A stretch of DNA of 64,000 nucleotides. Source: an uncultured Solibacteraceae bacterium. Lineage in GTDB: Bacteria > Acidobacteriota > Holophagae > Holophagales > Holophagaceae. The notes beneath the pieces were generated by a model. The model ran no database searches. It saw only the letters and a program-made list of their open reading frames with translations, and had not been told where the DNA came from. Both the position numbers and the translations under genes were made by a program. Location of the stretch: the NCBI GenBank assembly GCA_964434895.1, contig CAYSXG010000001.1, positions 1,701 through 65,700 of the forward strand. Reading direction: 5' to 3'. This document shows positions 3,872 through 62,795 of this stretch, in pieces. How positions within the stretch are numbered: the stretch's first letter is position 1; each line of letters opens with the position of its first letter.

Positions 3872-4962
3872 GCGGCCTCCTTTCGAGAAGTGGTTTTGGA
3901 TTTGGCCGCCTTGATCGGGTAGATGCGGCCGTAGGGGGTTTTCGGGGTTTCGGTGGTGTGGCTCTGCCGCAGGGCCAGGAGCTCCGCCGGCGGAATGGCG
4001 GCCCGGAGGGCGAGATCGCGGATCACCGCCTCCACGTCCTCATCTCGCTTCTTGCCGAAGCCCTGGAGGGTCCAGCGGTAGGCGGCCCCGTGCAGTTCCT
4101 GGGCGTCGCCCGCGACCAATGCGTTGTCGAGGATGGCCTTGCAGGCCTCCTCCCGGCCCTTCGATGCCTTGATGTCGGCCTGGACTGCGGCGAGATCCAC
4201 CAGGGCCTGGGCCACCTCCCCGGCCGCCTCGATGACGCGCTTTTCTTCGCGCTCCATCCGTTGGAGGAGGAAGTCCCGGGCCTCGCCCAGCATGGTCTGG
4301 CCCTCGGGGCGGACCTGCGGGAGGACGTGGGCCTCCCAGAACCGGATCCCGGCGGCCACTGCCAGCTCGAAAAACTCAGGGTCCGCTTGGAGGTGATAGG
4401 TGCGCTCCTCCACGAGGGCGGCCGCATAGGCCACTTCGTAGGGCAGGCCGCGGCCGATCATGCGCTTGGCCACTTCGAGATCGTAGAAGCCGGCGTGAAG
4501 GTCCCAAAAGGCCCGGCCCGTCAGGCCCATGTACCACTGGCACTGCACCCAGTAGTCCATGGGCACGTCGCCCGAGCCATCGGCGCCCCACTTGGAGTCG
4601 TCCTTCAGCAGGGTCTGTATGTTCGAGGTCTTGATCTCCAGGCCAAGGTCCGCGCGGTCCTGCACCAGGAAATCCGGCGAGCCCAGCAGGAACTCGTGGC
4701 CCGGGTGCCGGACCAGTTCCGGCTTGGTGAGGCTGTACCCCGTGCGGACGGCGTAGCCATGGGCGACCAGCGCTTCCCAGGCGTTCCCCAGATTCATCGC
4801 GAAGGAGGCCGGGGTCTCCAGGCCCTCGACCTTCTTGAGGTAGATGGTGAGGGCGTTCGACCAGGTGGAGGCCCCCAGGATGGCGGCCATGTCCGTGCCG
4901 CCGAGGCCAGTGCGTCGCTCGGCAAGCCAAGCCTCGCGGGACATGGAATTTTCAGCAGACAA
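3868..4962 (-). CDS. YqaJ / lambda-Exo-like recombination exonuclease
   Basis: The track ORF 3868..5397 is over-extended. The homology starts at SREAWLAERRTGLGGTDMAAILG and includes GSPDFLV...LGLEIKT (PD-ExK). I set the start at TTG 4962 just after AAGGAGG; ATG 4944 is the alternative. Confidence 0.8.
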   Translation of the reverse strand: MSAENSMSREAWLAERRTGLGGTDMAAILGASTWSNALTIYLKKVEGLETPASFAMNLGNAWEALVAHGYAVRTGYSLTKPELVRHPGHEFLLGSPDFLVQDRADLGLEIKTSNIQTLLKDDSKWGADGSGDVPMDYWVQCQWYMGLTGRAFWDLHAGFYDLEVAKRMIGRGLPYEVAYAAALVEERTYHLQADPEFFELAVAAGIRFWEAHVLPQVRPEGQTMLGEARDFLLQRMEREEKRVIEAAGEVAQALVDLAAVQADIKASKGREEACKAILDNALVAGDAQELHGAAYRWTLQGFGKKRDEDVEAVIRDLALRAAIPPAELLALRQSHTTETPKTPYGRIYPIKAAKSKTTSRKEAA

Positions 4963-9680: not shown

Positions 9681-10107
9681 TCCCAATAAACCACAACAGG
9701 CGCTTGCTATTCAGGGTGACGCCCGGCTTCAGGGCGGGGCTGGAGCCGCCTGTGCGGGGAGCCGAAACCGCATCGCAGCCGCGTAAGGCTCTTCTCCGCA
9801 CTCGGCAGGTAGTGGGTAGACCAGCCCATTCGGCGAATTCCACCACGGAGTCGGGTTCCCGACCAGGATGGGGCACTACCAACAAACGTGCTATGAGGGG
9901 CCATCTGTGGCCTGCGCGTCAGAAACGAACGTATTTGACGCATCAAGGTCGGATGTCCTGGATGGCGACTACCCGGAGAGCGGGCGGTTTGAACCTTCGC
10001 GGCGGGACCTTCTTCCCGAATGCCGGCCTCACGCCGGAGGCCCGCCCAGAGGTCCGCATCCGTGGGGGTCATGCCCAAGGGTAGCGTAAAAAAAGCGAAA
10101 TTTTTCC

Positions 10108-10137
10108 AGTTTCACATACTAGCAGGTATGTGAAACT
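10108..10137. repeat. Perfect 12-bp-arm inverted repeat AGTTTCACATAC-tagcag-GTATGTGAAACT
   Basis: Read directly from an AT-rich intergenic stretch, preceded by TAAAAAAAGCGAAATTTTT. It could be an operator, part of an origin, or a hairpin. Confidence 0.5.
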
Positions 10138-10175
10138 GCGCCGCGTTTAAGCCGGGGCAGGGGGCCCAGTACGGA

Positions 10176-10430: not shown

Positions 10431-11558
10431 GTGACCACCACCACCCCAACCGACCCCGGCATTCTCCAGGGCGTCCTCGTCCCGGAACCTGAATCCGCCC
10501 ATGGCCTGCTCACCCTCGTCCCGGGCCGGGCGCCCCAAGAGCTCTTCACCGACGCGGACGTGGTGGCCCAGCTCCTCACCTGGGTGCGCCAGGAGGCCCA
10601 GGCCTTCACGCCGGACCTCCGCACGAAGAAGGGCCGCGACGAGATCGCCTCCCGCGCCTACCGCGTCGCCAAGACCAAGGCTTACCTTGACGAGGTTGGG
10701 AAAGACCTGGTGGCGGACCTCAAGGAAGCGCCCAAGCGCGTGGACGCTGGGCGGAAGGTACTGCGTGATGGCTTGGACGCCCTGCGGGACGAGATCCGCC
10801 TGCCCCTCACCGCCTGGGAGGAGCGCCAGGACGTGATGAAGCGCCGAGTGGAGCGGATCCTGGCCCTTCCCGCCACCCTACGGGACGCGGATTCGATCAC
10901 GCTCCAATCCTCCATCAAGGCCCTGGACGCCGACCCCATGCAGGAGTCCTCCGAGTGGGGTGAATTCGCCGGTGAGGCCGCGACCGCCAAGGCGGCCACG
11001 TTGCCCCTCCTGCGCAACATGCTGGCGGATGCCATCCGCCGCGAGGCCGAGGCCGCCGAGTTGGAAGCCCTACGGCGCGAGAAGGCCGCCCAGGAGCAGC
11101 GGGACCGCGAGGAGCGGATCCGCCAGGAGTCCGCCGAACGCGCCCAATCCGAGGCGGAGGCCCGGGCCCGGGCCGAACGGGAGGCCGCGGCCCGGCGGGA
11201 AGCCGAAGCCGTGCTGGCCAAGGAGCGGGCCGAGCGCCAGCTTGAGGAGGAGCGCCGGCAGGCATCGCAGCGCGAAGAGCAGGCCCGCCAGGAGGCTGTG
11301 GAGGCCGAGCGGCGCCGCGCCGAGACCGAGCGCCTGGAGCGGGAGCTCAAGGACACCTTCGAGCGCGAGGAGAAGGAACGCCGTGAGGCCGATCTCCAAC
11401 ACCGCCAGCAGCGCAACCGCGAGGCCCTGACAGACCTCATGGGCGTTCTGGAACGGCAGACGGACACCCTGATCTCCAGCCAAGCGAAGGCCATCATCAC
11501 CGCCATCGTGAAAGGCGAGATCCGTAACGTTGGCATCAACTACGGGGTCCAAGCATGA
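10431..11558 (+). CDS. Coiled-coil phage early protein (DUF1351-like by eye)
   Basis: 375 aa with a GTG start after GAGGTGA. It contains a long E/R/A-rich coiled coil (REAEAAELEALRREKAAQEQRDREERIRQE...). Confidence 0.55.
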   Translation: MTTTTPTDPGILQGVLVPEPESAHGLLTLVPGRAPQELFTDADVVAQLLTWVRQEAQAFTPDLRTKKGRDEIASRAYRVAKTKAYLDEVGKDLVADLKEAPKRVDAGRKVLRDGLDALRDEIRLPLTAWEERQDVMKRRVERILALPATLRDADSITLQSSIKALDADPMQESSEWGEFAGEAATAKAATLPLLRNMLADAIRREAEAAELEALRREKAAQEQRDREERIRQESAERAQSEAEARARAEREAAARREAEAVLAKERAERQLEEERRQASQREEQARQEAVEAERRRAETERLERELKDTFEREEKERREADLQHRQQRNREALTDLMGVLERQTDTLISSQAKAIITAIVKGEIRNVGINYGVQA

Positions 11559-44778: not shown

Positions 44779-45648
44779 CTAAGCGGCGGCGCCCAACAGG
44801 GCGAGCAGGACCGCGAACGTGTGGTTCTGGGGGACGCCCTGGGCCTGCATGGCCTCAAAGAGGGCGGAAGGGGACGCAATCCGGCCTTCGGCGAGGGCCT
44901 CCAGAACGGACTGGACGGTTTGCGCGTTGAGGTCGCCGGGCAGGTCCGACTGGGCCAGTTGGGAGCCGCGAAGGTCGCGCAGCACGGCGGCCAGACCTTG
45001 GGCACTACCGAGGGCCTTAGCGAAGGTGCGAAGCGGGAGGGTGGTGAGCGCGGGCACATCCGGGTTCACCGGCGTCCGGGATAGCCCCACGCTCTGCCAG
45101 AGCAGGCCACCGATTTCCGTGGTGGGCAGGCCCGATGGGTCCACCACGCCGGCCTCGTTCGTGACCATGCCGTGGACGGAGGGATACCAAAGCACCGGCG
45201 GCGCCGTATGCAGACTGTCCCAGAACAGGTCCGCCGCTTCGGTCCAGCGATTGCCGTCCTGCGCGGAGGAGAAGATGGCGGCCTTCACCATGACGGAATC
45301 GCCCTCGGGGCGGGCGTCCAGGGGGCGACCAATTTCCCAGGCGTAGGGGTCCACGCGCTGCCCGCGAATCTGGCCGATCACCGAGGCATGGTCCAGGTCG
45401 ATGCGGCCGTGGCGGAGGAAGTAGGGAATGGACCCAATGAGGGCCCGCGCCAGGATCCGCTCACCCTGCACATCACGGGACTGGGTGGAGGCCTGGAAGT
45501 AGACGCAGCGGACGCCACCTTCAACGTGGGGCGTCGCCTTCATCAGCAGGCGGCCCGTCTCCACCCGGAAGGGGATGCCAGGCTGATCCGCACCGCTGGC
45601 CAGGGCCATGAGGCCGACCGCCGCGGCTGTGGTGAGGGGACTCGCCAT
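44779..45648 (-). CDS. Prohead maturation protease (HK97/S78-like)
   Basis: 289 aa. DVQGERILARAL...HGRIDLDHAS..VIGQI and LWQSVGLSRTPVNPDVPAL match the His and Ser regions of the family by eye. Confidence 0.6.
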   Translation of the reverse strand: MASPLTTAAAVGLMALASGADQPGIPFRVETGRLLMKATPHVEGGVRCVYFQASTQSRDVQGERILARALIGSIPYFLRHGRIDLDHASVIGQIRGQRVDPYAWEIGRPLDARPEGDSVMVKAAIFSSAQDGNRWTEAADLFWDSLHTAPPVLWYPSVHGMVTNEAGVVDPSGLPTTEIGGLLWQSVGLSRTPVNPDVPALTTLPLRTFAKALGSAQGLAAVLRDLRGSQLAQSDLPGDLNAQTVQSVLEALAEGRIASPSALFEAMQAQGVPQNHTFAVLLALLGAAA

Positions 45649-45775
45649 GGGGCGAGAGTCAGCCGATTCAAAGCCCCCGTGCCGAGCCGTCCCGCGCCAT
45701 TACGCGATGACGCGAGGCGCCGGGAAATGGGGCCGGAGCACCCGGGGACGCTGGACAGGCAAGAGGAGCGACCGC

Positions 45776-48700
45776 GTGACGCACATCAAGGCCTTCTACC
45801 GCAAAGTCAACGGCCGGGTGGTCTATGTGTCGGATCACGATGACAAGCGGACCACCGCGACTCTTCATCAAGCCGCGAGCACGCGCACCCCCAAGGCGCA
45901 CCCTCCGAAGGCCCTTCGCCATGGGATCACGCCTGGATCACACCGGGACGGAAGCCACTTCCTCCGGGCTGGCAGCCGAGAGGGCGCCGAAGCCATCCAG
46001 GAAGCCGCCCGAAAGCACGGGATCTCCCTCTCCCACCGCAAATCCCCGGCCATCCACCAGGGACAGCGCGACGTCTTCAGCCACTTCCATCACGCGGATC
46101 TTAAGGCCATCAAGGCGGTCCACACGGAACTCCAGACCCAGCAGATCCAGAAGGACTCGAATGAGGTCTTCGGGGACCAGGAGAAGGCCCGAAAGGCCTA
46201 CGAGGCCCATCCGGAGAGCAAGGGCGGGAAAAAGATCGACGTGGACGAGGCCCGTGAGCTGGTCCCCAGCTACCGGGAGAACCGGACCCTCGGGGCAGCG
46301 ATTGTCCACGCCGACGCCTCGAAGTTCGCCAAGGAGCAGTTCGAGCACCGGATGGCCATGCCCAAGCAGGAGCGGAACGAGGTTGTGGCCTTCATGGCCG
46401 GCGGCGGAGGCTCAGGCAAGGGCACGGCCGCAGACAAGTTCCAACTTGAGGACGCCGCTCATACCATCGTGGACGGCGCCTTTTCCAACTTCGAGAAGGC
46501 CAAGGCTCAGATCGAGCGGGCCCGCGCCTCGAAGAGAAGGGTGGAAATCAATTTCGTGTACCGGCCGATTGAGAAGGCCGTGGCCGGGATGGTGGGCCGG
46601 GCCCACGGAACGGGGCGCATCGTTCCCCTGGACGTGCTGGCCGAGGCGCACCGGGGCGCCCACGAAACCATCCGCAAGCTCATCGAGCACTACGGCGAAT
46701 CGAACCCCATGGTCCGCATCCGCATCTTCGACAACAGTGGGGACAGCATCCATGACGTGACCGCCGTGCCGCGCCAGGACATGCTCAAGTTCCTCGACAA
46801 AACCGCCTACGACGACACCATTGCGGATCGCGTCGCCGGGGCCTATCGTGAGGTTAGGGAGAAAGGCTATGAGCACAAAGGACAACGACATCAAACTGAA
46901 TCCCGAATCACCGATCACCTCGACCGAGGATTGCGAGCCCTGGACGGACGAGGAATTCGACACCCGCACGGAGCAGCTACTGGGCATCCTTCGGGGGACG
47001 AAGGCGGCAACCAAGCACGACGCCCCAGAGACGAAGGCGAGCTAGACCCGAAGAAGCCCGGGAGGGGCATCGCCAAGGCCCTCCGCGAGATCTTCAAGGC
47101 TCATATCAAGGGCCACATTCGCGTGATCGACGGCAAGACCGTCTGGATCGCCGCGCACGAGGACAAGCGCCAGGGCCGAGAGGCCCGGCTGCACGAGCGC
47201 ACGGTCAGGGGCGAGACCAGGGGCGGCCTGCACTACCTCCGCGCCAGCGACGCCGACGATGCGGCCACCATCCGGAAGGTTGCCCACCGGGCGGGGATCT
47301 TCCCGGTCGAGCAGAAGGGCAACGCCAACCACCTGGGCCGGGAGGGGAACTACACCCACTTCCATTTCCAGTTCCCGGGGCAGGCCGAGGCCGTACACCA
47401 GGCCCTGCGCGACCAGCAGGAGGCCCCTGAGCCGATTCAGGCCGGGCTATTTGATGAAGTGCCAGAGCAAATCGGTGGCCCCACCGAAATGGTCCCGGCC
47501 GAGCGTGCGGTAGCAGAACCCAAGGAAGACGGCCCCAAGGACAGGGCTCCGCACTGCATGTATCCCTCTCTCGTGGATGACGTGCAGCGGGAAAAAATTG
47601 AACAATGGCACAGGGATGGCGCAGACCCCGCACGAAGGCCCGCTGAGAGGGCTATTTACCTACCTGGAATGTCAAAGGGGAAACTCGACAGACTTCTTCA
47701 AAAAAACACCATGACCCTAGACGAAATTGAGGGCCTCAAGGACTACAAGTATCTAATCCTGGCGCAGCCTAACGATGCTTGGGAAATGGGCTTCATGACC
47801 CGCTACGCAAGCGATCATGGCGATGTATTGGCCCCCAAGAACAAGTTTCTACTTACGAACATTGACGCCAAGCTAGAAGGGGTATCGAACCCTCCGCAAG
47901 AGGGCCCCAAGGAAGGCGACCGCAACGAGGAACGCCTCGTCTTCCATGACGGCCGCTGGCACCGCGATAATCCCGCCCCTTCCGATCCGCCAAGCGTGGA
48001 AACGGATACGGGGGCGCCCGAGCCCGTGCCGGCGCCCCCAGCCTCCGACCCCATCGCCCTCGAAACTCGGCGGGCCCTCCTGGAGCGCATCGACCAGGGG
48101 ACCATCACCCCGGCGGAGCTGGTCCAGGCCTGGGAGGCCTTCCAGGTGGCCAAGCCCGGACTCAAGGCCGAGCTGGATGGCCTCAGCAAGGCCAAGTGCA
48201 TCGAGCGGATCCGCCCCCTCGGATTCAATGTGGACCCCAAGACCAAGATGACCAAGGACAGCATCATCAAGGCCGTCCTGGACCGGATGACCAAGCCCTT
48301 CAACGTCCAGGGCGTGATGAGCTGGTCCCCGTTCTCCGAGACCTACGAGGCCGCCCTGGACCGCGTGGTTCGCGCCACCACCCCCGAGCAGATCGCCACC
48401 CACGCCGCAGAGGTGGCCCAGGCCAAGGAGAACCGCAAGGCCGCGCTGGAGAAGATCCAGAAGGCCATCGAGAACCCGGAGACCCTGGAGGACTTCGAGC
48501 TCCGGGCCAAACAGGAGGCCCCCGATCTCACCGCCGAGCAGCGCCGGCGGTGGGAGGAACTCAAGGCCGACGCCCAGCGCCAGGCCACCGGCGCGAAGGC
48601 TCCCACACCGGCGGCCAGCATGGACGGCCTGGACCTGGAACTCCACGATACAAAGCACACCAAGACCGGCGAGACGCTCCACGTCGTCACCATCAGCCAG

Positions 48701-50155
48701 CGGGTGGACCGCAGCATCTACGAGCAGCTCCTGGCCAAGGCCAAGGGCCTGGGCGGGTGGTACAGCTCCTACCGCGGGAACGGAGCCATCCCGGGCTTCA
48801 CCTTCAAGACCCCAGAGGCCGCCAAGGCATTTATGGGGCAAACCAGCGAGGAGGGCGCCATAGCCCCGGTCCCCGCCGCTGAGGAGCGCCAGGCCGTCCG
48901 CCAGGAGAAGGTGAGCAGCAAGCTCCGGGACATGGCCGAGAAGATGAAGGAACAGGCCGAGGGCTCCCTAGTCCAGGACCGCCGCACCGGCACCCACCGC
49001 CAGGCCCGAATGGCCGCCAGCGCCGAAGCCGTAGCCCATGGCCAGATCGCCATGGCCAACACCATGACCAACCTGGCCGCCGCCATCGAAGAGGGGAAGG
49101 CCAAGCACTTGGCCGGACTCACCACCAGGACCCAGATCGAGACCCTGAACAGCATCCTCAGCCAGGCCATCCGTGAACACCAGAGGGCCCAGGGCCTCAG
49201 CTACGCCCAGAAGCAGGCCGAGGAAGGCCGCGCCGCCAATCAGGAGGACGTGGACCACGCCGAATACCCCTACCCGGAAATCTGGGATCACATCTTCGGG
49301 AACATCACACGGGAAGCCACGCACGTCCCAGGGACAAAACGAGCCCTTGCCCGGCTCGCCACCGCGCTCCATGGCAAGGAGCACATCAAGCTGGACACCC
49401 CGGACCTCATCGAGGCCGGGACCACCCTGGCCCAGAAGATCGGGAACACATCCATCGGGAAGCGCCTCAAGGATCTCCTCACCCGCTACACCCGCCTCCA
49501 GGCCGCCAGGATCCAAAGCCCTGAGCAGCTCCGGGCTGCCCTGCGCGAGTACCTGGTCTACAAGTCCATGGCCCCGGGCGCGGACCCCATCAAGACTGCC
49601 GAGCGCTCCCTCATCGGCGCCAAGATCCCAGGCTACTTCCCAACCCCCTCGGCCCTGGCCCAGGAGGTGGTGGACAAGGCCGACATCGCCCCCGGCATGA
49701 AGATCCTGGAGCCCTCCGCCGGCAAGGGGAGCCTCATCGACGCCATCCACGAGGCCTACGGCAAGGACGCCGTGGAGGTGGAGGCCATCGAGCCCGTCTC
49801 CAGCCTTCGGACCATCCTGGAGGCCAAGGGCCACAAGCTGGTGGGCCGGGACATCATGGAGCATGAGGCCCTGGAAGGGTACGACCGCGTGGTGATGAAC
49901 CCACCCTTCGAGAACGGCCAGGACATGGAACACGTCCGGAAGGCCTTTGAACTCCTGAAGCCAGGCGGCCGCCTGGTGGCCATCACCTCTCCGGCCCCCT
50001 TCTTCCACCAGAGCAAGAAGGCCCAAGCCTTCCGCGAATGGTTCGATAGCCTGGGCGGAGTCCAGGAGAAGAACCCCGACGGCAGTTTCAAGGCGAGCGA
50101 CAACCCCACAGGCGTTGCCACCCACACCCTCATCATCGACAAGCCCGCGGCCTAG
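45776..50155 (+). CDS. Giant polyvalent-type protein: repeated LPD-like modules, Zeta-toxin-like P-loop kinase domain, C-terminal N6-adenine DNA methyltransferase
   Basis: The track ORF is 45608..50155. I prefer GTG 45776 (8 nt after AGGAG), with ATG 45707 as the alternative. Walker A is FMAGGGGSGKGT, near 46391. MTase motif I is ILEPSAGKG (about 49703) and motif IV is NPPF (about 49897). Continuity across 46869..47045 is doubtful. Confidence 0.55.
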   Translation: MTHIKAFYRKVNGRVVYVSDHDDKRTTATLHQAASTRTPKAHPPKALRHGITPGSHRDGSHFLRAGSREGAEAIQEAARKHGISLSHRKSPAIHQGQRDVFSHFHHADLKAIKAVHTELQTQQIQKDSNEVFGDQEKARKAYEAHPESKGGKKIDVDEARELVPSYRENRTLGAAIVHADASKFAKEQFEHRMAMPKQERNEVVAFMAGGGGSGKGTAADKFQLEDAAHTIVDGAFSNFEKAKAQIERARASKRRVEINFVYRPIEKAVAGMVGRAHGTGRIVPLDVLAEAHRGAHETIRKLIEHYGESNPMVRIRIFDNSGDSIHDVTAVPRQDMLKFLDKTAYDDTIADRVAGAYREVREKGYEHKGQRHQTESRITDHLDRGLRALDGRGIRHPHGAATGHPSGDEGGNQARRPRDEGELDPKKPGRGIAKALREIFKAHIKGHIRVIDGKTVWIAAHEDKRQGREARLHERTVRGETRGGLHYLRASDADDAATIRKVAHRAGIFPVEQKGNANHLGREGNYTHFHFQFPGQAEAVHQALRDQQEAPEPIQAGLFDEVPEQIGGPTEMVPAERAVAEPKEDGPKDRAPHCMYPSLVDDVQREKIEQWHRDGADPARRPAERAIYLPGMSKGKLDRLLQKNTMTLDEIEGLKDYKYLILAQPNDAWEMGFMTRYASDHGDVLAPKNKFLLTNIDAKLEGVSNPPQEGPKEGDRNEERLVFHDGRWHRDNPAPSDPPSVETDTGAPEPVPAPPASDPIALETRRALLERIDQGTITPAELVQAWEAFQVAKPGLKAELDGLSKAKCIERIRPLGFNVDPKTKMTKDSIIKAVLDRMTKPFNVQGVMSWSPFSETYEAALDRVVRATTPEQIATHAAEVAQAKENRKAALEKIQKAIENPETLEDFELRAKQEAPDLTAEQRRRWEELKADAQRQATGAKAPTPAASMDGLDLELHDTKHTKTGETLHVVTISQRVDRSIYEQLLAKAKGLGGWYSSYRGNGAIPGFTFKTPEAAKAFMGQTSEEGAIAPVPAAEERQAVRQEKVSSKLRDMAEKMKEQAEGSLVQDRRTGTHRQARMAASAEAVAHGQIAMANTMTNLAAAIEEGKAKHLAGLTTRTQIETLNSILSQAIREHQRAQGLSYAQKQAEEGRAANQEDVDHAEYPYPEIWDHIFGNITREATHVPGTKRALARLATALHGKEHIKLDTPDLIEAGTTLAQKIGNTSIGKRLKDLLTRYTRLQAARIQSPEQLRAALREYLVYKSMAPGADPIKTAERSLIGAKIPGYFPTPSALAQEVVDKADIAPGMKILEPSAGKGSLIDAIHEAYGKDAVEVEAIEPVSSLRTILEAKGHKLVGRDIMEHEALEGYDRVVMNPPFENGQDMEHVRKAFELLKPGGRLVAITSPAPFFHQSKKAQAFREWFDSLGGVQEKNPDGSFKASDNPTGVATHTLIIDKPAA
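46869..47045 (+). CDS. 58-codon +1-frame ORF embedded in the giant ORF (acidic mini-protein, or the ancestral frame)
   Basis: ATG after AGGGAGAAAGG. MSTKDNDIKLNPESPITSTEDCEPWTDEEFDTRTEQLLGILRGTKAATKHDAPETKAS. My hand count of third-position GC is about 80% in this frame and about 50% in the main frame, which has 7 CGA codons here. Confidence 0.4.
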   Translation: MSTKDNDIKLNPESPITSTEDCEPWTDEEFDTRTEQLLGILRGTKAATKHDAPETKAS

Positions 50156-51543: not shown

Positions 51544-54500
51544 ATGGACGGCCTTCTCTTCCGCGACCCCTCTGGGGAGGTTCTACCTCTGGAGGTGGTG
51601 GGCTGGGACGAGCTTGACCTCCGCGAGATCACGAAGGGAGGCGACGCCGCTCCGCCAGGCGCCCGCTGGATCACCGTCCACCCCCATGGGAGCGATGGGC
51701 CCGGCCGCCCCGTCCTCATCCGCGAGGTGAAGGGCAGCCACGGCGTCTTCCACATCGTCGGCGGCGCCTCCGGCAAGCTGAACGGCCTCCGCCTCCAGAA
51801 CGTGAAGAGCCCCGAGGAATACAAGGCCGCCGCGAAGGATCGCGCCAAGGAACTCAAGGCCAAGCGCAAGGAAGCGGAGAAGAGCCTCACGCCCGAAGAG
51901 CGCGAGAGCCGCAAGCTGGACAAGCAGGCCGCGCATTCAGCCGTGAAGGACGCGGAGAAGCGCCTCATCGAGGCCACCCTCAAGGCCAAGGGCCTGGATC
52001 CGGCACAGGCCGAACTGGACACCGACAACAACCTGGCGCGGGTAAAACATCACCGGGCCCTGCTCTCCGAGGCCATGAAGAGCGCCGCCCAGGCGGAGAA
52101 GTCCCTGGTGCTGGACGCCCAGGCCCGCATGGAGGCCGGCCTTGAGACCGTGGGCGGCGACCAGCAGCTTGACGCGGATACCGTGCTCACCACCAAGGAC
52201 GTGGAGGCCGGCGCCGGCTACCAGCGTGGCCTGAAACAGAAGGCCGAGGAGGCCGGGCTCACCCAGCAGGGGCTGGCCGACACTGCGGCCGAGCTTCGGG
52301 AGCAGGCCGCCAAGAACCGCGTGGAGGCGGGCGACTTCACCGACTACCACACCAAACTCGGGGGCGGGGATCCCGTCCTCGGCATCCAGATCGTCGGCGC
52401 CCGCATGGGCGAGCTGAACCGCCAGGCCCACCAGCAGGCGAAGGCCGCCCAGGGCCACGCCACCCAGAACACCCGCGAGGCCATGAAAGCGGCGGCCACC
52501 GACAACCAGGCCCTGGCCGAGATCCTTGCTGCCCGGAAAGCCTTGCGGGAGGCCCTGAAGGGGGCCAAGCAGGGCAAGCCCCCCATCTTCGCCAAGGCCT
52601 TCCAGGCTCACCTGGAAGAGCTCACCGATGGAGCAATCCAGGACATCGAGGACCAACTCCGCACCGAACGGTTCCAGGGGTTCCTGGATGAGGTGGAGAA
52701 ATCCTTCCCCGAGCCCACGAGCACCATCGACCCGGACCACATCCCCGAGGATGGGCTCCACGCCAGCCGCCACACCGGCGCCTTCGACGCCCTCCACGAG
52801 ATCGGCCTGGGCGTCATGGGCCAGGGCGCCATCAGCCGCGAGGCCGTGGAAGTCCTGGGGCCGGATGGCGCCGCCACCATCCTGGCCCGCGCCCTCAAGA
52901 GCGGCTACACCCACGAGGAGCAGGCCGAAATCCTGGAGGCCCTTGAAGGCGTCCACCAGGACGAGCAGGAGAAGGATCTCCCCCAGGCCATGGCCTATGC
53001 CTCTCAGCTTCGGGACGAGGCGGCCAAGGTCGGGGAAGAACTGGCCGAGAATGCCAAGGATCTGGCCATCGCCGCCGAGATGCAGCGCAACAAGGTGGCC
53101 TTGCTCAAGGAAGCCCGGCGCACCGTGGGCGCGATGCTGGGGCGCATGGAGGCCCGGGCGGCCCTCATCGCCGCCATGCAGGGCGCCCCCAGCGACCGCC
53201 TGACGGTCCCCATCGGGAAGAACCGGGAGACCGCCATCCAGGCCGCCTACGCCCTGGGCCTGGAGAATGGGGACTACCACCTGGACCAGGACCGGGGCGA
53301 GGTGCTCCTCCATCTCACCGGCCAAGGGCAGAATCGCCTCATTCGCCCCGTAGACCAGGCTGCCCTCGCCGAGCGCGAGACGGCCATGGCCATCAAGCGC
53401 GGCGACCTTGACGAGGACGGCTGGATCCCCAAGGGGTTCACCCGCCGCACCGCCCTCCGGAGCGATGACCCACTCCTGGAGCCCCCCATGTTCCGCCAGC
53501 CGTTCCAGGTGGCCCCCGATGCCACGCCGGAGCAGCTCCAGGAATCCATCGAGGACTACATCGGGGCCCGCTACGCAGACGGCGACCGCGCCACGGACAT
53601 CCTCCAGAGCCTCAACAACGCCAGCCGGTTGGATTCTGTTCCGGAGCCCCTCTGGGAGACCTACCAGGAGAAGGTCCGCCAGGCCCTGCCCCTCCGAGAG
53701 GCCGTCCTAGACGCCGAGGGAAACCAGGCCTTCGACGTGGACGAGGACAGCGACGAGCAGCTCCCCCGCACCCGTGCCGCCAAGGCCGAGACCATCGACC
53801 GGGCCGCCCAGGCCATGGCCGAGCGCTACTTCGAGCGCAAGGGCCTCCGGGGCGACCTAGCCTTCTACCGTCAGGGCATCGACCCGGATAGCGATGCCTT
53901 CCGAGAGAGCGCCCACCGGGCCCTGGCCAAGAACCCGCGGGCCTCCGCGGCCTTCACCCCTGTCGGAGAGCTCACCAGCGACCAGCAGCGGGACCTGCGG
54001 GAGCACTTTTACGAGAGTCTGGCCCAGCAGAGCGCCAAGAAGGAGACCCGGGCCCAGAACAACGAGGCCGCCGCTAAGGATGCGGCCGGGCCGGAGCCCC
54101 CGGAGTACGAGCTCGATATGTTCGGGGAGCAAAGCCACACCCCGGAATGGCTGGAATGGCACGAGCGCGTCCAGACAAACCTGGCCGCCGAGCAGGGCCA
54201 GGCCGAGGGCGCCGCGCCAGCCGAGGACCCGGAAACGCCATGGGCCCGCTTCGTGGAGACCATGGGCGGGCTCAAGGACGCCCAGAGGGCCGTCCAGGAC
54301 CACATGGCCAGCGAGTTCCTCGGGAACTTCGCCGAGAGCTACCAGAACGCCACGGGCCAGAAATTCAAACAGGGCCAGGCCAAGGTCCATATGGCCGACA
54401 AGTTCATCAAGGCCACCGGGACTGCGGAGCAGAAGGCCCAGGCCCGGGCCGAGCGCCAGGCAGAGGTGGAAGCCAACCGTGGGCGCGGACCTGGCGGGAA

Positions 54501-56382
54501 GTTCAAAGAGGGCTCCATCAATGCCCGCATTGAGGAGAAGCGCCAGCGCGGCGCCACGGCCGAGGCCGAGGCCGGTGGACTCTTCGATCTGGGCGACTTC
54601 ACCCAGGCCCCTGCCCCGGCCCCCGAGGAGGCCCAAAAACCCTTTGCCCTGGCCCCGGGCTACCGCCTGAGCTTCGGCCCCCGACTGGAGGCCCAGCTCC
54701 GCCAGGCCCTGCCTGCGGCCGCCGCCATGATGCAGGGGCAGAAGAAGGCCGTCGCCCTCAAGTCCAACCTCAACATGAGCGGGCGATTCATCGCCCAACA
54801 GCGCGGCATCAAGGCCATCACCCACTTGCACCGGATCGGCCTTTTCTACGGGGCCGGGAGCGGCAAGACGAGCGTGGTGCAGGGCGCCCATGCCGAGCTT
54901 CACGCCGCCGGCAAGGTCCAGAAGGCGATCTACGCAGTCCCCTCCGCCGTCCAAGCCCAGTTCGGGGCCGAGGCGGCCATGTTCATCGACCCGAGCTCTG
55001 GCCTCCACATCCACGCCAAGCCGGGCGAGACATTCGAGGAACGGATCCGCACCTACCAGGCCCCCGACATCCACGGCGTCGTCGTCACCCACCAGGCCCT
55101 GCGGGACGACACCCTGAAGGTGCTCGGCCAGCATGTCGGTAAGGAGGGCGAGGCCCTAAAAGCCTGGGTCCACGGCGCCAAGCGCCAGGAGCTGGCCCAG
55201 GCCGTCAAGGACGCCTGGGGCAAGGCCAGCGTGAACTACCAGGCCCTTTTCCTGGACGAGGGGCACAACGCCCTGAACCGGGCTGGGAAGGAGGACAGCA
55301 CCCTCGCCAAGATCATCGACGCAGTTGGCGACACCTCCACCTACTACGCCGGCGCCACCGGCGACCCCATCAAGAACGACCCCTCTGAAGCCTACGACTG
55401 GCTCACGAAGATCGACCCCCGGCGCTACCCGCCCGAGGGCCGCGACGAGTTCATGCGGCGCTTCGGGGGCAACACGGCCGCCACCCGGCGCAGCCTCAAG
55501 GCCGAGCTGGCCCGCTATTACTTCGCCGAGCGCGTGGACCCCGGAGTTCAGGCCCACCACGAAATCGTGAAGGCCAAGGTCACGCCAGAGCAGCAGCAGA
55601 CCCTGGCGGCGCTGGACGCGAACATGAACCGCCTCCGCACCGCCAGGACCCCGGAGGAGGTGCTGGAGCGGGCCAAGGCCTTCGCGCCCGAGGCCTTCGA
55701 GGGCAAGGACGGGATGGAGCCGCAGGCCATCGCCGACAGCGTGAAGAAGGCCGTGGGCACCTTCAAGGAAGCGGCCTACAACCGGATCCTCAACTGCGAT
55801 CCCAAGGGCGGCAAGGTCCAGGAGACCGTGGCCCAAGCCAAGGCCTCCATCGCAGACGGCCGCCCTCCCATCATCTTCGCCCGCAACCTGGCAGCCGTGG
55901 AGGCCATCCACCAGGCCATGGAGGCGGCCGGAATCCATGTCACGACCCTCACCGGCAAGCACAGCGCCGCGGAGAAGGCCGAGCGCATCAAGACCTTCCA
56001 GCCCACGAACTGGAACCACCCCGATCCGGCCCAGCGGGCCAAGCCGGGCGCGGAGGCCATCGTCATGTCCGACGCAGGAGCCACGGGCATCAACCTCCAG
56101 AGGGGCGCGGACGTGATCCACCACGACATCCCCCAGACCCACATGACCCACAGCCAGCGCACCGCCCGGGCCCACCGGCTGGGCCAGACCCGGGACGTGC
56201 GGGTGAAGACCATCGCCGCCGACCACGCCTTCGACCAGAACAACCTCCAGCGCCTGAAGCGCAAGGAGGCCTTGGCCGGGATCTTCAAGAGCCCCGAGGG
56301 CTTCCTGGACGACTCCGGCATCGCCGAGCGCATGAGGGCCCTGCGCCAGCGCCGCCTTTCCACCCAAACCACCGCCGCCTAA
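51544..56382 (+). CDS. Giant protein with a C-terminal SNF2-family helicase
   Basis: 1612 aa. The N-terminus has ARWITVHPHG...PVLIRE...GGASGKLNGLRL. Helicase motifs are GAGSGKT (about 54851), LDEGHN (about 55252) and THSQRTARAHRLGQTRDV (about 56150). Confidence 0.8.
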   Translation: MDGLLFRDPSGEVLPLEVVGWDELDLREITKGGDAAPPGARWITVHPHGSDGPGRPVLIREVKGSHGVFHIVGGASGKLNGLRLQNVKSPEEYKAAAKDRAKELKAKRKEAEKSLTPEERESRKLDKQAAHSAVKDAEKRLIEATLKAKGLDPAQAELDTDNNLARVKHHRALLSEAMKSAAQAEKSLVLDAQARMEAGLETVGGDQQLDADTVLTTKDVEAGAGYQRGLKQKAEEAGLTQQGLADTAAELREQAAKNRVEAGDFTDYHTKLGGGDPVLGIQIVGARMGELNRQAHQQAKAAQGHATQNTREAMKAAATDNQALAEILAARKALREALKGAKQGKPPIFAKAFQAHLEELTDGAIQDIEDQLRTERFQGFLDEVEKSFPEPTSTIDPDHIPEDGLHASRHTGAFDALHEIGLGVMGQGAISREAVEVLGPDGAATILARALKSGYTHEEQAEILEALEGVHQDEQEKDLPQAMAYASQLRDEAAKVGEELAENAKDLAIAAEMQRNKVALLKEARRTVGAMLGRMEARAALIAAMQGAPSDRLTVPIGKNRETAIQAAYALGLENGDYHLDQDRGEVLLHLTGQGQNRLIRPVDQAALAERETAMAIKRGDLDEDGWIPKGFTRRTALRSDDPLLEPPMFRQPFQVAPDATPEQLQESIEDYIGARYADGDRATDILQSLNNASRLDSVPEPLWETYQEKVRQALPLREAVLDAEGNQAFDVDEDSDEQLPRTRAAKAETIDRAAQAMAERYFERKGLRGDLAFYRQGIDPDSDAFRESAHRALAKNPRASAAFTPVGELTSDQQRDLREHFYESLAQQSAKKETRAQNNEAAAKDAAGPEPPEYELDMFGEQSHTPEWLEWHERVQTNLAAEQGQAEGAAPAEDPETPWARFVETMGGLKDAQRAVQDHMASEFLGNFAESYQNATGQKFKQGQAKVHMADKFIKATGTAEQKAQARAERQAEVEANRGRGPGGKFKEGSINARIEEKRQRGATAEAEAGGLFDLGDFTQAPAPAPEEAQKPFALAPGYRLSFGPRLEAQLRQALPAAAAMMQGQKKAVALKSNLNMSGRFIAQQRGIKAITHLHRIGLFYGAGSGKTSVVQGAHAELHAAGKVQKAIYAVPSAVQAQFGAEAAMFIDPSSGLHIHAKPGETFEERIRTYQAPDIHGVVVTHQALRDDTLKVLGQHVGKEGEALKAWVHGAKRQELAQAVKDAWGKASVNYQALFLDEGHNALNRAGKEDSTLAKIIDAVGDTSTYYAGATGDPIKNDPSEAYDWLTKIDPRRYPPEGRDEFMRRFGGNTAATRRSLKAELARYYFAERVDPGVQAHHEIVKAKVTPEQQQTLAALDANMNRLRTARTPEEVLERAKAFAPEAFEGKDGMEPQAIADSVKKAVGTFKEAAYNRILNCDPKGGKVQETVAQAKASIADGRPPIIFARNLAAVEAIHQAMEAAGIHVTTLTGKHSAAEKAERIKTFQPTNWNHPDPAQRAKPGAEAIVMSDAGATGINLQRGADVIHHDIPQTHMTHSQRTARAHRLGQTRDVRVKTIAADHAFDQNNLQRLKRKEALAGIFKSPEGFLDDSGIAERMRALRQRRLSTQTTAA

Positions 56383-57899: not shown

Positions 57900-59435
57900 G
57901 TGCTCCTCACCCTGCAAACCCAGGCATTCTTCGGCACCTCCTCGGCTAGCCTCGGCCTGGGCGGAAGCGCGGCGGGAGCCCATGGGGAGACAGGTAGCAG
58001 CACAATCGCCTTGGCCCTCAGCGGCAGCTCCGGTGGAAGCCAAGGGGTTGCGGGGGCGGCCACGGGGGCCATCTTGGTGGCCGGGAACGCCTCCGGAAGC
58101 CACGGAACCACTGGAACCTCTTCCAGCGTCCTCGCCATCACCGGAGCCGCCTCCGGGGCCCAAGCTGAGAGCGGGAGTTCCTCTTCCACCCTCGCCCTTG
58201 CGGGCAGCGGAACCGGCACCCATGGCGTGGCCGGGCCAAACACCGCCCTCCTTCCCCTTGCAGGTACCGCAGCAGGCCTCCAGGCCATCGCCGGGTCCAG
58301 TTCGGCCACTCTGGCCATCGGAGGGGCTGCTACCGGAACCCTGGGGACCTCCGGGAACTCTTCCCGACCGCTGGTGCTCGGCGGTGCTGCCGCAGGAGCC
58401 CAAGCAGAAACCGGGGGCAGTTCCGCGTCGATGCCCTCCCTCACGGGCTCCGGGTTTGGGGCCCATGGCGCCGTGGGGACTTCGACCGCCACCCTTTCCC
58501 TCTCAGGCTCTGCCGCGGGTGTCATCGTCACAGCCGGGGCCAGCCTCGGAGCCCTCGCCCTGCTGGGTTCGGCCTCGGGGGCCCAGGGCGCAACGGGAAC
58601 CTCCACCAAGACCATCGCCCTCAGCGGGGCCGCCACGGGGACTCAGGGCCTTTCAGGCTCCAGTAATCTGGCCCTGAGCATGGCATGGGCAGCCCTAGGC
58701 GCTCATGGCACTACGGCCACCAGTACCGCCTCCCTGAGCCTTGGAGGAGCCATCGCGGCCCTTCAAGGCGAGACAGGTGCCTCCTCCGGCGCCTTGAGCC
58801 TCGGCGGGGCCACCTTGGGCACCCACGGGGCCTCTGGCACAGCCTCCAGCAGCCTCCAGATTCTTGGGACAGCTTCGGGGCAGGCACTGGGGCTGGCGGA
58901 CATCGGCACCTCAACAGCAGCATTGCCCTTCCAAGGGAGCGCCACCGGCACCCACGGCACGGACGGAGGGTCCTCGGCTGCGCTTTCCCTCTTCGGAACC
59001 AGCAGCGGGCACCATGGGGAGGCGGGGGCCAGCACCGCAGTTCTCTCGCTTTCAGGGGCTGGCATTGGCCTTCATGGAGCCACCGGATCAGTCCTCGGTG
59101 GCCTCCACCTTCAGGGCTCCGCCACAGGTGCGCATGGCGCCGCCGGAACCAGCAGCGCCGGGCTGATCATCCAGGCTCTTGGAGCCGGGGGCCACGGGGT
59201 CACAGGGGCCAGCTCAGGCCCCCTGACGCCCATGGGCTATGCCGAGGGGTTCGCCTTCGCTCCCACTTCCCACGCGGACCCAATCAGAACCAGCACCATC
59301 CCCGCCGAGACCAGGGCCGCGAGGGTCGCTCCCGACCTGCGCACGGCGGCAGTGCAAAAAGAGGAGAGGCGCACGGCCATCCCGGCCGAGGTCCGCGTCC
59401 AGACCGTTCACGCCGAGCCCCGGAGGATCGCTTGA
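57900..59435 (+). CDS. Tandem-repeat fibre-like protein (21 x ~20 aa)
   Basis: GTG start, 511 aa. Repeat consensus is G-[ST]-A-x-G-x-[HQ]-G-x-x-G-x-S-[ST]-x-x-L-x-L-x. The C-terminal tail has IPAExR repeats. Confidence 0.6.
   Translation: MLLTLQTQAFFGTSSASLGLGGSAAGAHGETGSSTIALALSGSSGGSQGVAGAATGAILVAGNASGSHGTTGTSSSVLAITGAASGAQAESGSSSSTLALAGSGTGTHGVAGPNTALLPLAGTAAGLQAIAGSSSATLAIGGAATGTLGTSGNSSRPLVLGGAAAGAQAETGGSSASMPSLTGSGFGAHGAVGTSTATLSLSGSAAGVIVTAGASLGALALLGSASGAQGATGTSTKTIALSGAATGTQGLSGSSNLALSMAWAALGAHGTTATSTASLSLGGAIAALQGETGASSGALSLGGATLGTHGASGTASSSLQILGTASGQALGLADIGTSTAALPFQGSATGTHGTDGGSSAALSLFGTSSGHHGEAGASTAVLSLSGAGIGLHGATGSVLGGLHLQGSATGAHGAAGTSSAGLIIQALGAGGHGVTGASSGPLTPMGYAEGFAFAPTSHADPIRTSTIPAETRAARVAPDLRTAAVQKEERRTAIPAEVRVQTVHAEPRRIA
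57963..59234 (+). repeat. Coding tandem repeat, about 60-nt period, 21 units
   Basis: Residues 22-445 of the protein parse into units of 20 aa, except one of 21 and one of 23. The nucleotide copies have diverged. Confidence 0.7.
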
Positions 59436-59710
59436 GCATCGCCGCCTATCTGAAAGCCCCGGGGGCCACGCTGGACTTCGGCAACGACTGGGGCTCCTGG
59501 CTCCACGCCGGCGAGACCATCACCGCCAGCACCTGGGCGGCGAGCGGCACCGGGCTCATCGTGGCCGGCTCCAGCGTGGCCAGCGGCACCGCCATCGCAT
59601 GGCTGTCCGGCGGCACCGTGGGCACCACCTACACCGTCGCCAACCGCATCACCACCTCCCAGGGTCGCACCGACGAGCGCACTTTTACGGTCCAGGTGGT
59701 GGCCCGGTGA
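59432..59710 (+). CDS. Small Ig-like fibre/adhesin-family protein (92 aa)
   Basis: TTG start overlapping the upstream stop (TTGA). LDFGNDWGSWLHAGETITASTW...LSGGTVGTTYTVANRITTSQGRTDERTFTVQV is a recurrent phage family pattern. Confidence 0.5.
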   Translation: MSIAAYLKAPGATLDFGNDWGSWLHAGETITASTWAASGTGLIVAGSSVASGTAIAWLSGGTVGTTYTVANRITTSQGRTDERTFTVQVVAR

Positions 59711-60555
59711 GCGATCCCTCCCAGGCCTTCGCCCGCGAGGTGCTCAAGAACCTCCACCGCATTCACGGCCACCCCTTCCACCTTCACGGGGAGACCTTCT
59801 GGCGGGAGGAACACTGGGCCCAGCGGCCCGAACACGGGGGTGCCCCAACAAACTCGACACCAGCCGCCATTTCTCGGGGAGCCCCGTCCCTGTTGATGTC
59901 TGAGCAAGGGTGTTCCATAAACGAGGGATTGCGTGACACCCAGGGAAGCGGCTCTGATGAGGCTGTTTCGCGTCCTGTAACCCGTCACAAATTCAAGGTC
60001 ACAGGAACGGTGCTGCGTGTCCGGGAGAAATGGCGGCTCATTGCACGTTTGTTGGGGTTACCCGAACACGGGGTCCAGGTTGAGAAGGGGCCAGGGGGCT
60101 GCGGGCGCCGCTGGACTCCCGAAGAAGAGAAGCGCTGGCGGAATCACCGCATCATGGCCAACCCCGAGGTCTACCGGCTCACGGGCGCAGCATCCGCCCC
60201 CATCAAGGCCGACTGTCTGGCCCTTTTCGAGAAGCGGGAGCGCAAGGACATCCAGATTTTCAGGAGCCCCGCCGACATTCAGGCCGCCGTGGACGAGGTG
60301 CTCACGCGGCCCGCGCTCATCCACCAAGCCACCAAGGACGAATGGTGGGCCGTGGTGCGCCATTCCGATGGCCTCATCAAACTTGTGGCCATCGACTTGA
60401 CCTCGCCAACGCGGCAGTACCAAGTCCGCAGCGTCCACCTGATCGACCCAGGCCAACTCGAATACCAAAGGCGCCCTGAGCGGGATGTGCTCAAGGCGCT
60501 TGAAGCGACTGACGGGCCCGCCGTTAACCTCGGGGTTCTGGGATGCAGGGGATGA
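59707..60555 (+). CDS. Hypothetical protein interrupted in frame by a foldback element
   Basis: GTG start (GTGA overlap), 282 aa. Residues encoded by about 59840..60060 look non-native. Confidence 0.4.
   Translation: MSDPSQAFAREVLKNLHRIHGHPFHLHGETFWREEHWAQRPEHGGAPTNSTPAAISRGAPSLLMSEQGCSINEGLRDTQGSGSDEAVSRPVTRHKFKVTGTVLRVREKWRLIARLLGLPEHGVQVEKGPGGCGRRWTPEEEKRWRNHRIMANPEVYRLTGAASAPIKADCLALFEKRERKDIQIFRSPADIQAAVDEVLTRPALIHQATKDEWWAVVRHSDGLIKLVAIDLTSPTRQYQVRSVHLIDPGQLEYQRRPERDVLKALEATDGPAVNLGVLGCRG
59827..60073. mobile_element. MITE-like foldback element flanked by 13-bp direct repeats
   Basis: The direct repeat CCCGAACACGGGG occurs at 59827 and 60061. Terminal inverted repeats are CCCCAACAAAC (59843) with GTTTGTTGGGG (60047), and AGCCGCCATTTCTC (59862) with GAGAAATGGCGGCT (60025). 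The repeat-to-repeat distance is 234 nt, or 78 codons. Confidence 0.45.
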
Positions 60556-60643
60556 ACCACGCAGCACGACCCAGGTACTCGGATCTCCGTGCCTCACGGT
60601 CACGGATCGTCGTCAGCACCCCCAGCATGGAGCGAGAAATCAC

Positions 60644-60862
60644 ATGGCGCAAGACCCTTTAGCCCCGGCCCGCCGCCTACTGGCCGAACTGGACGCGGAG
60701 ACGCGCCAGGCGGAAGCCCACCTCCAGGCCCTCGTGAAGGAGGGCGGCGACCACTTCCGCCAGGTCCACCAGGACGCCCTGCCCCACCTCACACCCGACA
60801 ATGTGGAGACCTGGAGCGCCCAAGCCGGGGCCCTGGCCTCCCTGGAGGATCTGCATGGGTAA
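60644..60862 (+). CDS. Hypothetical 72-aa helical protein
   Basis: Internal ATG (residue 54) of track ORF 60485..60862. Confidence 0.4.
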   Translation: MAQDPLAPARRLLAELDAETRQAEAHLQALVKEGGDHFRQVHQDALPHLTPDNVETWSAQAGALASLEDLHG

Positions 60863-62132
60863 GACCCTGCCCCACGACACCTTCAAGGCCCAACTCATCG
60901 CCGAGTTCCAGCGCCTGACCGTCAAGCTGGGCCGCATCCCCACCCGCCGGGAATTCCGGGAGATGGCAGCACCCATCGGACGCACCTTCGAGCGGGCCTT
61001 CCTTTCCTGGAAGGACTTCGTGGCCGAGGCTGAGGCCTGCCTGCCCGCAGCTCCGGCGCGTCCCGCCGACGCGCCCTTAGACCTCGCCCTCGCCAAGGAC
61101 GAGGTGCGGGCCCTCCGTGCCCAGCTCCAGGCCCGCTCCAAGGAGGAACTCTCCGAAAAAATGGTCCGCCGGGAAATCTTCAAGCTGGCCGAGGCCTCCC
61201 CCGAACCGCCGGCGTGGCTCCTGGCCCACAAGAAGGGCAAGAGCGCCCCCGGCGTCCCCACCCTCTTCTCCAGCGACTGGCACTGGGGCGAGGTCGTGGA
61301 CGGCCGCCAGGTGGGTGACGTGAACCGCTACGACCTGGAGGTGGCCCAGCAGCGGGCCCGGACCATGATCGAGACGGCCATCGACCTCCTAACCCGGCAC
61401 ATGGCCAACCCGGACTACCCCGGCATCGTCTTCGCCCTGGGCGGCGACATGGTGAGCGGCGACATCCACGAGGAGCTCATGGCCACCAACCAGGCCGAAA
61501 TGATGCCCATTTTCGTGGACCTCTTCGGGGTGCTCATCTGGTGCATCGACCGCCTGTCCGACGCCTTCGGACACGTCTTCGTGCCATGCGTCAGCGGCAA
61601 CCACGGCCGCATGACCCACAAGATTCGAGCGAAGGGACGGAACTTCACCAACTTCGACTGGTTGCTCTACACCCTTCTGGAGAAGCACTACATCGCCAAG
61701 AAGGATAAGCGGGTGCAGTTCTTCATCCCGGACGGCCCTGACGCCCTCTTCCGCATTTACGGCCACCGCTACCTGCTCACCCACGGCGATCAGTTCAGAG
61801 GTGGTGACGGGATGGTCGGGGCTCTAGGGCCTCTTGTGCGAGGCGATCATAAGAAGCGCGGACGCAATGCCCAGGTCAACATGGCCTACGACACGATGCT
61901 TTGCGGTCACTGGCACCAGCTCATCCAGCTAAAGCGCCTCATCGTGAACGGCAGCCTCAAGGGTTACGACGAATACGCCTACAGCAACAACTTCGGATTC
62001 GAGCGCCCCCAGCAGGCCCTCTGGATCACCCACCCAGACCACGGCATTACCTTCTCCATGCCGGTCCACGCCGAACACCACCAGGCCCGGGAAACGACAC
62101 CCTGGGTCTCCTTCCAGCAGGCAAGCGCGTGA
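60855..62132 (+). CDS. Calcineurin-like metallophosphoesterase with an N-terminal HNH-associated-repeat-like helix bundle
   Basis: Internal ATG (residue 19) of track ORF 60801..62132. Motifs are SDWHWGE, GGDMVSGD, GNHG, THGDQ and GHWH. Confidence 0.75.
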   Translation: MGKTLPHDTFKAQLIAEFQRLTVKLGRIPTRREFREMAAPIGRTFERAFLSWKDFVAEAEACLPAAPARPADAPLDLALAKDEVRALRAQLQARSKEELSEKMVRREIFKLAEASPEPPAWLLAHKKGKSAPGVPTLFSSDWHWGEVVDGRQVGDVNRYDLEVAQQRARTMIETAIDLLTRHMANPDYPGIVFALGGDMVSGDIHEELMATNQAEMMPIFVDLFGVLIWCIDRLSDAFGHVFVPCVSGNHGRMTHKIRAKGRNFTNFDWLLYTLLEKHYIAKKDKRVQFFIPDGPDALFRIYGHRYLLTHGDQFRGGDGMVGALGPLVRGDHKKRGRNAQVNMAYDTMLCGHWHQLIQLKRLIVNGSLKGYDEYAYSNNFGFERPQQALWITHPDHGITFSMPVHAEHHQARETTPWVSFQQASA

Positions 62133-62720: not shown

Positions 62721-62795
62721 TGGTGGCGGGGGCCGGACTTGAACCGGCAGCCTTGGGCGTATGAGACCCCTGCTCTGCCATTGAGCTACCCCGCA
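62721..62795 (-). tRNA. tRNA with a CAU anticodon (Met; Ile2 or fMet not excluded), CCA encoded
   Basis: Hand fold gives acceptor GCGGGG/CCCCGC, U8, D arm GCUC-AAUGGCA-GAGC and anticodon loop CUCAUAC. The T arm is GCCGG-UUCAAGU-CCGGC, followed by discriminator A and CCA. Position 1:72 is a U:C mismatch in this fold. Confidence 0.8.

Follow-up and report, generated by a model that had tools for sequence, protein, structure and literature searches.

A probable Tn3-derived miniature element in frame within a gene of a phage genome

The locus and its repeats

The window, by which we mean the whole 64-kb stretch of DNA analysed here, is by its gene content a phage genome. Its phage markers are a major head protein (phrog_752, 1e-62), a tail fibre assembly match, a YqaJ recombinase, an SLT domain and an exonuclease. 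Two very large ORFs occupy 45608-50155 and 51544-56382, one of 1515 aa with a Zeta-toxin domain and a DNA methyltransferase and the other of 1612 aa with a helicase C-terminal domain. A tRNA-Met gene lies on the minus strand of the phage window at 62721-62795. At 10107-10138, in AT-rich intergenic DNA upstream of ORF 10431..11558 (phrog_1376), there is a perfect 13-nt palindrome, CAGTTTCACATAC-N6-GTATGTGAAACTG, that looks like an operator or other regulatory site.

The ORF under study (Table 1) begins with a GTG that overlaps the stop codon of the gene upstream (GTGA), and AGGTGG stands 7 nt upstream. To its left, at 57900-59435, is a 511-aa ORF made up nearly wholly of degenerate repeats rich in Gly, Ser, Ala and Thr. 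It matches nothing in Pfam or PHROG, its DNA shows no tandem repeat, and its product may be a fibre-like structural protein. To its right, at 60801-62132, is the exonuclease gene (phrog_284), whose N-terminal part of about 90 aa carries a 'homing endonuclease associated repeat' (PF18780). This part is absent in 79 of the 80 viral relatives of the exonuclease, their matches starting at residue 70-131; the exception, L113, matches from residue 32.

Within the ORF under study the 13-mer CCCGAACACGGGG stands twice, 234 nt apart from start to start, and the window holds it nowhere else, even with one mismatch. Between the two copies are an 11-nt inverted pair, CCCCAACAAAC (59843-59853) with GTTTGTTGGGG (60047-60057), and a 14-nt inverted pair, AGCCGCCATTTCTC (59862-59875) with GAGAAATGGCGGCT (60025-60038). 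An earlier sequence-only reading of this DNA had reported all these repeats, and its coordinates, its sequences and the 234-nt spacing proved exact.

That reading had also called chance an unlikely source of the repeats. The inverted repeats are indeed far beyond chance: their arms reach 57 nt at 70% complementarity, and the z-score for the fold of the 247-nt segment is -4.5 on the plus strand and -5.9 on the minus strand, none of 200 shuffles being as good. The 13-mer by itself is weakly unusual, as at least two matches arose in 8 of 100 shuffles with one mismatch allowed. The long hairpin and the lower GC of the interior, at 58% against 68% in the flanks, are likewise as the sequence-only reading had described them. 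Simple chance was rejected as an account of the repeats, the inverted repeat family recurring elsewhere.

Table 1. Positions of the ORF, the predicted miniature element and its parts, and a related terminal repeat in the window
Feature	Position	Strand	Details
Target ORF	59707..60555	+	283 codons, 282 aa as found; 204 aa without the element
13-bp repeat, left copy	59827..59839	+	Target CCCG, duplication AACAC, IR tip GGGG
Predicted target duplication, left copy	59831..59835	.	AACAC; register from L011
Whole predicted miniature element	59836..60064	.	229 bp, IR tip to tip; from IR register and length
Left 38-bp terminal IR	59836..59873	+	GGGGGTGCCCCAACAAACTCGACACCAGCCGCCATTTC ('TCGACACCAG' variant), starts GGGG
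Non-coding core	59874..60026	.	58% GC; first ~70 nt homologous to L036/L033 transposon ends
Right 38-bp terminal IR	60027..60064	-	Reverse complement CGGGTAACCCCAACAAACGTGCAATGAGCCGCCATTTC ('GTGCAATGAG' variant)
13-bp repeat, right copy	60061..60073	+	IR tip CCCG, duplication AACAC, target GGGG
Predicted target duplication, right copy	60065..60069	.	AACAC
Shorter public product P0001	60154..60555	+	133 aa, starting at the first ATG past the element; matches residues 150-282 at 100% identity
Solitary diverged IR copy	9870..9907	+	GGGGCACTACCAACAAACGTGCTATGAGGGGCCATCTG; in ~750-bp low-GC intergenic DNA; 18/22 over the tip, 30/41 overall

Terminal repeats and Tn3-family relatives

The sequence-only reading had the inverted repeats (IRs) begin 3 nt inward of the direct repeats. 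The IRs are in fact 38 bp long, and their tips overlap the 13-bp repeat. The left and right IRs are identical at 28 of 38 positions, and the right tip reads CGGG instead of GGGG, with C for G at position 1. In a 41-nt scan register (60024-60064) this position is the sole deviation of the right IR from the consensus described below.

We searched for relatives with a pattern taken from two conserved arm blocks, CCCAACAAAC-N7-9-AGCCGCCATT. It matched 10 loci in species-representative genomes and 28 metagenome contigs. The genome loci comprised three in Holophagaceae MAGs, one each in MAGs labelled Acidobacteria, Solibacteraceae, Singulisphaera and Silvanigrellaceae, and three that are chance matches (L006, L007 and L008). 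These three were rejected as IR copies together with L026, L030, L038 and L039, all being chance matches that lack the IR tip. In viral contigs the strict pattern had no match (0), and the only locus given there by a looser pattern, L014, has no GGGG tip and was rejected as a chance match as well.

The loci yield a terminal consensus of 38-41 nt, GGGGTAACCCCAACAAACGTGCAATGAGCCGCCATTTC(TCC), that is seen in about 30 different flank contexts. At several of them other elements adjoin the IR exactly after position 38. In the 41-nt register the IR of L027 is exactly the consensus and that of L002 departs from it at 1-2 positions, and the left IR of our element matches those of L036, L021, L016, L034, L022 and L041. 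The two ends of the element are two IR variants, each of which bounds an element on both sides elsewhere, the left type in L041 and the right type in L002.

Some of these loci have a further repeat next to the IR. In L003 (6389-6429), L018 (1468-1508) and L042 (382-422), the 38-bp IR is followed at once by a second, variant IR (…CAAGGGATCAAGTAGCG) in the same orientation and then by a gene whose translation suggests a putative MerR-like regulator. The flank contexts of the three differ, and the arrangement is that of a double-ended transposon terminus. In L020 (~1150-1185) and L021 (~860-1210), a small inverted-repeat element with the ends GGTCACGGCACCGAAGGGRAATTTAC sits exactly where the 38-bp IR ends on its inner side.

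A 38-bp IR starting with GGGG is a hallmark of the Tn3 family, and the same IR bounds complete transposons of that family. The one in L041 (1170..4937) has the IR at both ends and encodes a 995-aa protein with DDE_Tnp_Tn3 (PF01526, 7e-138) and DUF4158, together with a serine resolvase (2e-48). The one in L017 (398..4133) encodes the same two kinds of protein, a Tn3 transposase (PF01526, 8e-140) and a resolvase. Its transposase-proximal end carries the IR (398-438), and its resolvase end (4093-4133) carries a variant that has only the first ~24 nt in common with the consensus. In L002 (4369..5079) both IRs flank two Tn3 transposase fragments in a decayed 711-bp derivative, whose interior matches genes annotated 'Tn3 family transposase' in 69 plasmid records.

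Because the element ends in sequence homologous to the IRs of complete transposons of the Tn3 family, we assign it to this family. With high confidence, segment 59836-60064 is a 229-bp non-autonomous Tn3-family derivative, namely a MITE of the TIME type. The same homology, a coding signature that the flanks have and the element lacks, and the absence of the segment from homologues of the protein bear out the main proposal of the sequence-only reading, a miniature foldback element lying in frame within the ORF. Mobile elements of this kind are known, and what is unusual is the location; no new kind of system is involved.

The classical Tn3 and Tn21 subgroups have an inner IR motif ending in ...ACGYTAAG. 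The IR of our element ends in ...AGCCGCCATTTC, and the inner TAAG motif of the classical IRs is absent from it, which places the element in a different lineage of the Tn3 family. Among annotated TnpA proteins the closest, at 67% identity to that of L041, are those of Pelobacter propionicus pPRO1 and Solidesulfovibrio carbinolicus pDCAR1.

The sequence-only reading had also proposed a structured RNA embedded in the gene, which could be a regulatory RNA, an intron-like RNA or an ncRNA gene with the hairpin as its functional unit. The strongly negative folding z-scores on both strands would suit such an RNA, and stable predicted transcript folds are noted also for the TIMEs (PMC4133298). However, inverted repeats in DNA should fold with equal strength on either strand, which is the case here, and the paired arms are predicted transposase-binding IRs, which elsewhere terminate complete transposons. 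In a permissive Rfam scan of 58500-61500, no match below E = 9 overlapped the element. Pairing of the two 38-bp IRs is what gives the long hairpin. The RNA proposal gained no positive support, and we consider it extremely unlikely.

The promoter and terminator scan had nothing within the element. An intein was rejected, the segment being too short and having no domain match, and so was a group I or II intron, which had no Rfam match.

Target site and reading frame

The sequence-only reading had suggested that the 13-bp direct repeat could be an unusually long target duplication. The register of the duplication can be set at 5 bp because in the pDCAR1 transposon (L011) its duplication TGCAT directly adjoins GGGG, and the same register gives AACAC at our locus. 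Counting the first base of the right tip, a C, as target and not as IR gives a 6-bp option, GAACAC from 59830. The remaining 7-8 bp of the repeat are the IR tips (GGGG, and CCC or CCCG) coinciding with the target's own flanks. Judged by this comparison, the duplication is the family-typical 5 bp (or 6 bp) and not 13 bp.

Both the left and the right copy read CCCG/AACAC/GGGG, and therefore the site before insertion would have been ...CGG CCC GAA CAC GGG GTC... The CCCG-N5-GGGG context occurs at 4 sites in the window and CCC-N6-GGGG at 15. Ordinary Tn3-family target choice does not account for the 7-8 extra matching bases, which are unexplained by it. A target so like the element's own tips may have been hit by rare coincidence or may reflect a preference for such targets, and in any case makes this insertion a striking instance.

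The apparent 13-bp duplication could point to a MITE from another family, of the IS type, whose target duplications are long. However, 38-bp GGGG IRs bound elements that encode PF01526 Tn3 transposases and no IS transposase is linked to this IR, which leaves that origin a practically negligible chance.

Another account of the repeat is a small cassette that entered by site-specific or microhomology-mediated recombination, with the 13-bp repeat as an att-like crossover core and with precise excision possible. The repeat is perfect and, at 13 bp, exceeds any Tn3-family duplication, its CCCG-N5-GGGG context is rare, and removal of one repeat with the interior restores the open 204-aa ORF. But 8 of the 13 bases belong to IR tips, and about 30 other copies, as well as L011, set the register of these tips independently. 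Elsewhere the flanks of this IR are unrelated, other insertions of the family never share the 13-mer, and no recombinase gene is associated with the element. The excisable cassette that the sequence-only reading had offered as an option is hence without positive support, and we regard it as very improbable. DNA-level loss by slippage between the 13-bp repeats is possible.

As to a target preference of the Tn3-family element, Tn4430 is reported to have a weak preference for C-TnnnA-G (bioRxiv 10.64898/2026.05.30.728999). At L011 there is a small extension of a like kind, C-TGCAT-GG. When the flanks of 30 distinct IR ends were tabulated, the tip-adjoining pentamer was A/T-rich and CCC stood at -8..-6 in 3 of the 30. 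One may speculate that the transposases of this Tn3 lineage prefer dyad-symmetric targets resembling two abutted IR tips (CCC-N5/6-GGG), an exaggeration of the weak preference of Tn4430. The long direct repeat and the 229-bp foldback could then lead to frequent precise excision by replication slippage, and the insertion would serve as a reversible switch or variant-generator in a phage gene. We think this whole scheme very unlikely.

The element and one 5-bp duplication add 234 bp, that is 78 codons, between codons 43 and 44 of the ORF. The insertion falls within an N-terminal extension peculiar to the lineage, and the conserved domain begins just downstream. The ORF stays open with and without the segment, and the encoded stretch is non-native, both as had been proposed. 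The GC content of the three codon positions is 0.74/0.40/0.88 upstream of the element, 0.70/0.46/0.80 downstream of it and 0.60/0.58/0.58 inside, where there is no coding bias. Both flanks are in one shared frame and resemble the neighbouring genes, and the element is unlike them.

The element is free of stop codons in only one of its six frames, which is that of the target ORF. A shuffled element is open in a given frame in 5.5% of cases, and with the 1/3 chance of adding whole codons this comes to ~1.8-2% for a random insertion. The low figure would favour the 78 codons being an original, lineage-specific part of the protein, with the repeats incidental. This reading is scarcely credible and is already contradicted: the codon-position GC bias is strong on both sides and absent inside, the DNA of the segment is homologous to transposon ends in unrelated organisms, and the homologues of the protein lack the segment.

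The distant homologues P0002, P0003 and P0007 (135-150 aa; phmmer), and larger proteins with the same domain, align from about residue 136-145 of the 282-aa ORF, downstream of the element only. None of them covers the 78 residues of the element or the first 43 residues. The 282-aa product has no Pfam or PHROG family, and the ORF as a protein query had no match in viral contigs or in a 5.8-billion-protein index. The ORF restored by removing the element had no match in metagenomes. Of the 80 viral relatives reached through the neighbouring exonuclease (56-68% identity), none has a homologue of the ORF or of the genes next to it on the upstream side. As no empty site was found in any related genome, the insertion is deduced from its anatomy and not from a before-and-after comparison.

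An exhaustive phmmer search returned the window's own product only as the public gene call. This call starts downstream of the element, and its product, P0001, lacks a KRWRN stretch that is conserved in the homologues and lies upstream of the annotated ATG. This 133-aa call is probably truncated by the insertion. No in-frame start codon lies between the element and the ATG at 60154, and the right arm has three in frame, GTG at 60010 and TTG at 60049 and 60052. The 78 added codons contain no stop, and therefore ribosomes starting at the native GTG can still read on into the conserved C-terminal domain and make a fusion. Alternatively, the GTG and TTG codons in the right arm could restart translation. 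In-frame fusions made by intragenic MITEs are not unusual (PMC10969869).

Origin of the insertion and known systems

The sequence-only reading had suggested a search for further copies and for empty sites. Partial copies were found, but no second full copy of the 229-bp element and no empty site. The left ~110 nt, that is the IR and ~70 nt more, are 86% identical over 95 nt to metagenome contig L036 and 81% over 100 nt to metagenome contig L033, where the sequence runs on into larger, different elements in differing contexts. The core beyond these ~110 nt had no match, and only the left ~110 nt and the IRs recur. The element had no match in the phage collection (blastn), nor had the 14 kb around it in the plasmid and phage collections (megablast).

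The window contains one complete copy of the element and one solitary IR, at 9870, for which no partner was found. The solitary IR suggests that the same transposon family struck this phage lineage at least twice. Tblastn searches of the window with TnpA of L041 and L017 and with TnpR of L041 returned nothing, and cognate autonomous elements exist in L041 and L017. Because the phage window lacks a Tn3 transposase, we infer that the element was mobilised in trans by a cognate Tn3-family transposase encoded outside the phage.

In the insertion that we envisage, a Tn3-type DDE transposase of the host cell, not of the phage, would bind both IRs. The replicating phage genome would be cut with a stagger of 5 (or 6) bp, the IRs would be joined to the cut ends, and AACAC would be duplicated. 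Replicative insertion into replicating phage DNA is proposed because Tn3-family elements insert preferentially into phages and plasmids (PMC11417375). The cointegrate would be resolved by homologous recombination and a single copy left in the phage. This route of resolution is presumed because the element has no resolvase gene and its short core shows no homology to a known resolution region.

The preserved frame is probably why the insertion has been tolerated. Survivorship is a likely background to it, as a compact phage genome would keep only those insertions that leave the downstream domain translated. The element is an example of one that resides in a gene without ending its translation. 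Whether it can still move at the present day is uncertain, given that its IRs are identical at only 28 of 38 positions and are of two variants.

The Tn3-derived miniature elements have so far come mainly from Pseudomonas and enterobacterial plasmids. The present one adds to them an uncharacterised lineage of the Tn3 family, from environments rich in Acidobacteriota, and a phage genome as carrier. The practical gain is modest and consists in a better annotation of the target gene and in a defined 38-bp IR consensus for tracing the lineage.

The nearest known systems are the TIMEs, ~260 bp long, whose IRs are of the Tn3 type and ~40 bp in length and whose target duplications are of 5 or 6 bp. 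They are usually single-copy, are mobilised in trans and have a stable predicted fold (PMC4133298). The same paper, of 2014, also names small Tn3-type relatives such as IS101. Our element is like the TIMEs in its small size (229 bp against 256-262 bp), its lack of a transposase gene, its imperfect IRs of ~38-40 bp of the Tn3 type and its 5- or 6-bp duplication. It resembles them also in its low copy number, its predicted stable foldback and a GC content below that of its surroundings.

It differs from the Pseudomonas TIMEs in that its IR is unrelated to their IRs of the Tn5044/Tn5563 type. Its source is an uncharacterised Tn3 lineage found in MAGs of Holophagaceae and other Acidobacteriota, in other MAGs and in peat or lake metagenomes. 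Moreover, it lies in frame within a phage gene, and its two IRs come from two variants.

Among autonomous elements, the unnamed Tn3-family transposons of pDCAR1 and pPRO1, annotated with 'Tn3 family transposase' and a recombinase, have IRs that share the first ~20 nt with ours (GGGGTAAACCCAACAttCGTG). The one in pDCAR1 is ~3.8 kb long and makes a family-typical 5-bp duplication, and of the pPRO1 copy one IR was located. Unlike our element they are autonomous, and the inner half of their IR differs in that it holds the stop codon of TnpA.

The Rickettsia palindromic elements (RPEs) and the intragenic MITEs are alike in that a palindromic element sits in an ORF, keeps the frame and adds a foreign peptide (PMC10969869). 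The RPEs carry a conserved peptide into many genes, whereas here there is one insertion that has no coding signature and is Tn3-derived.
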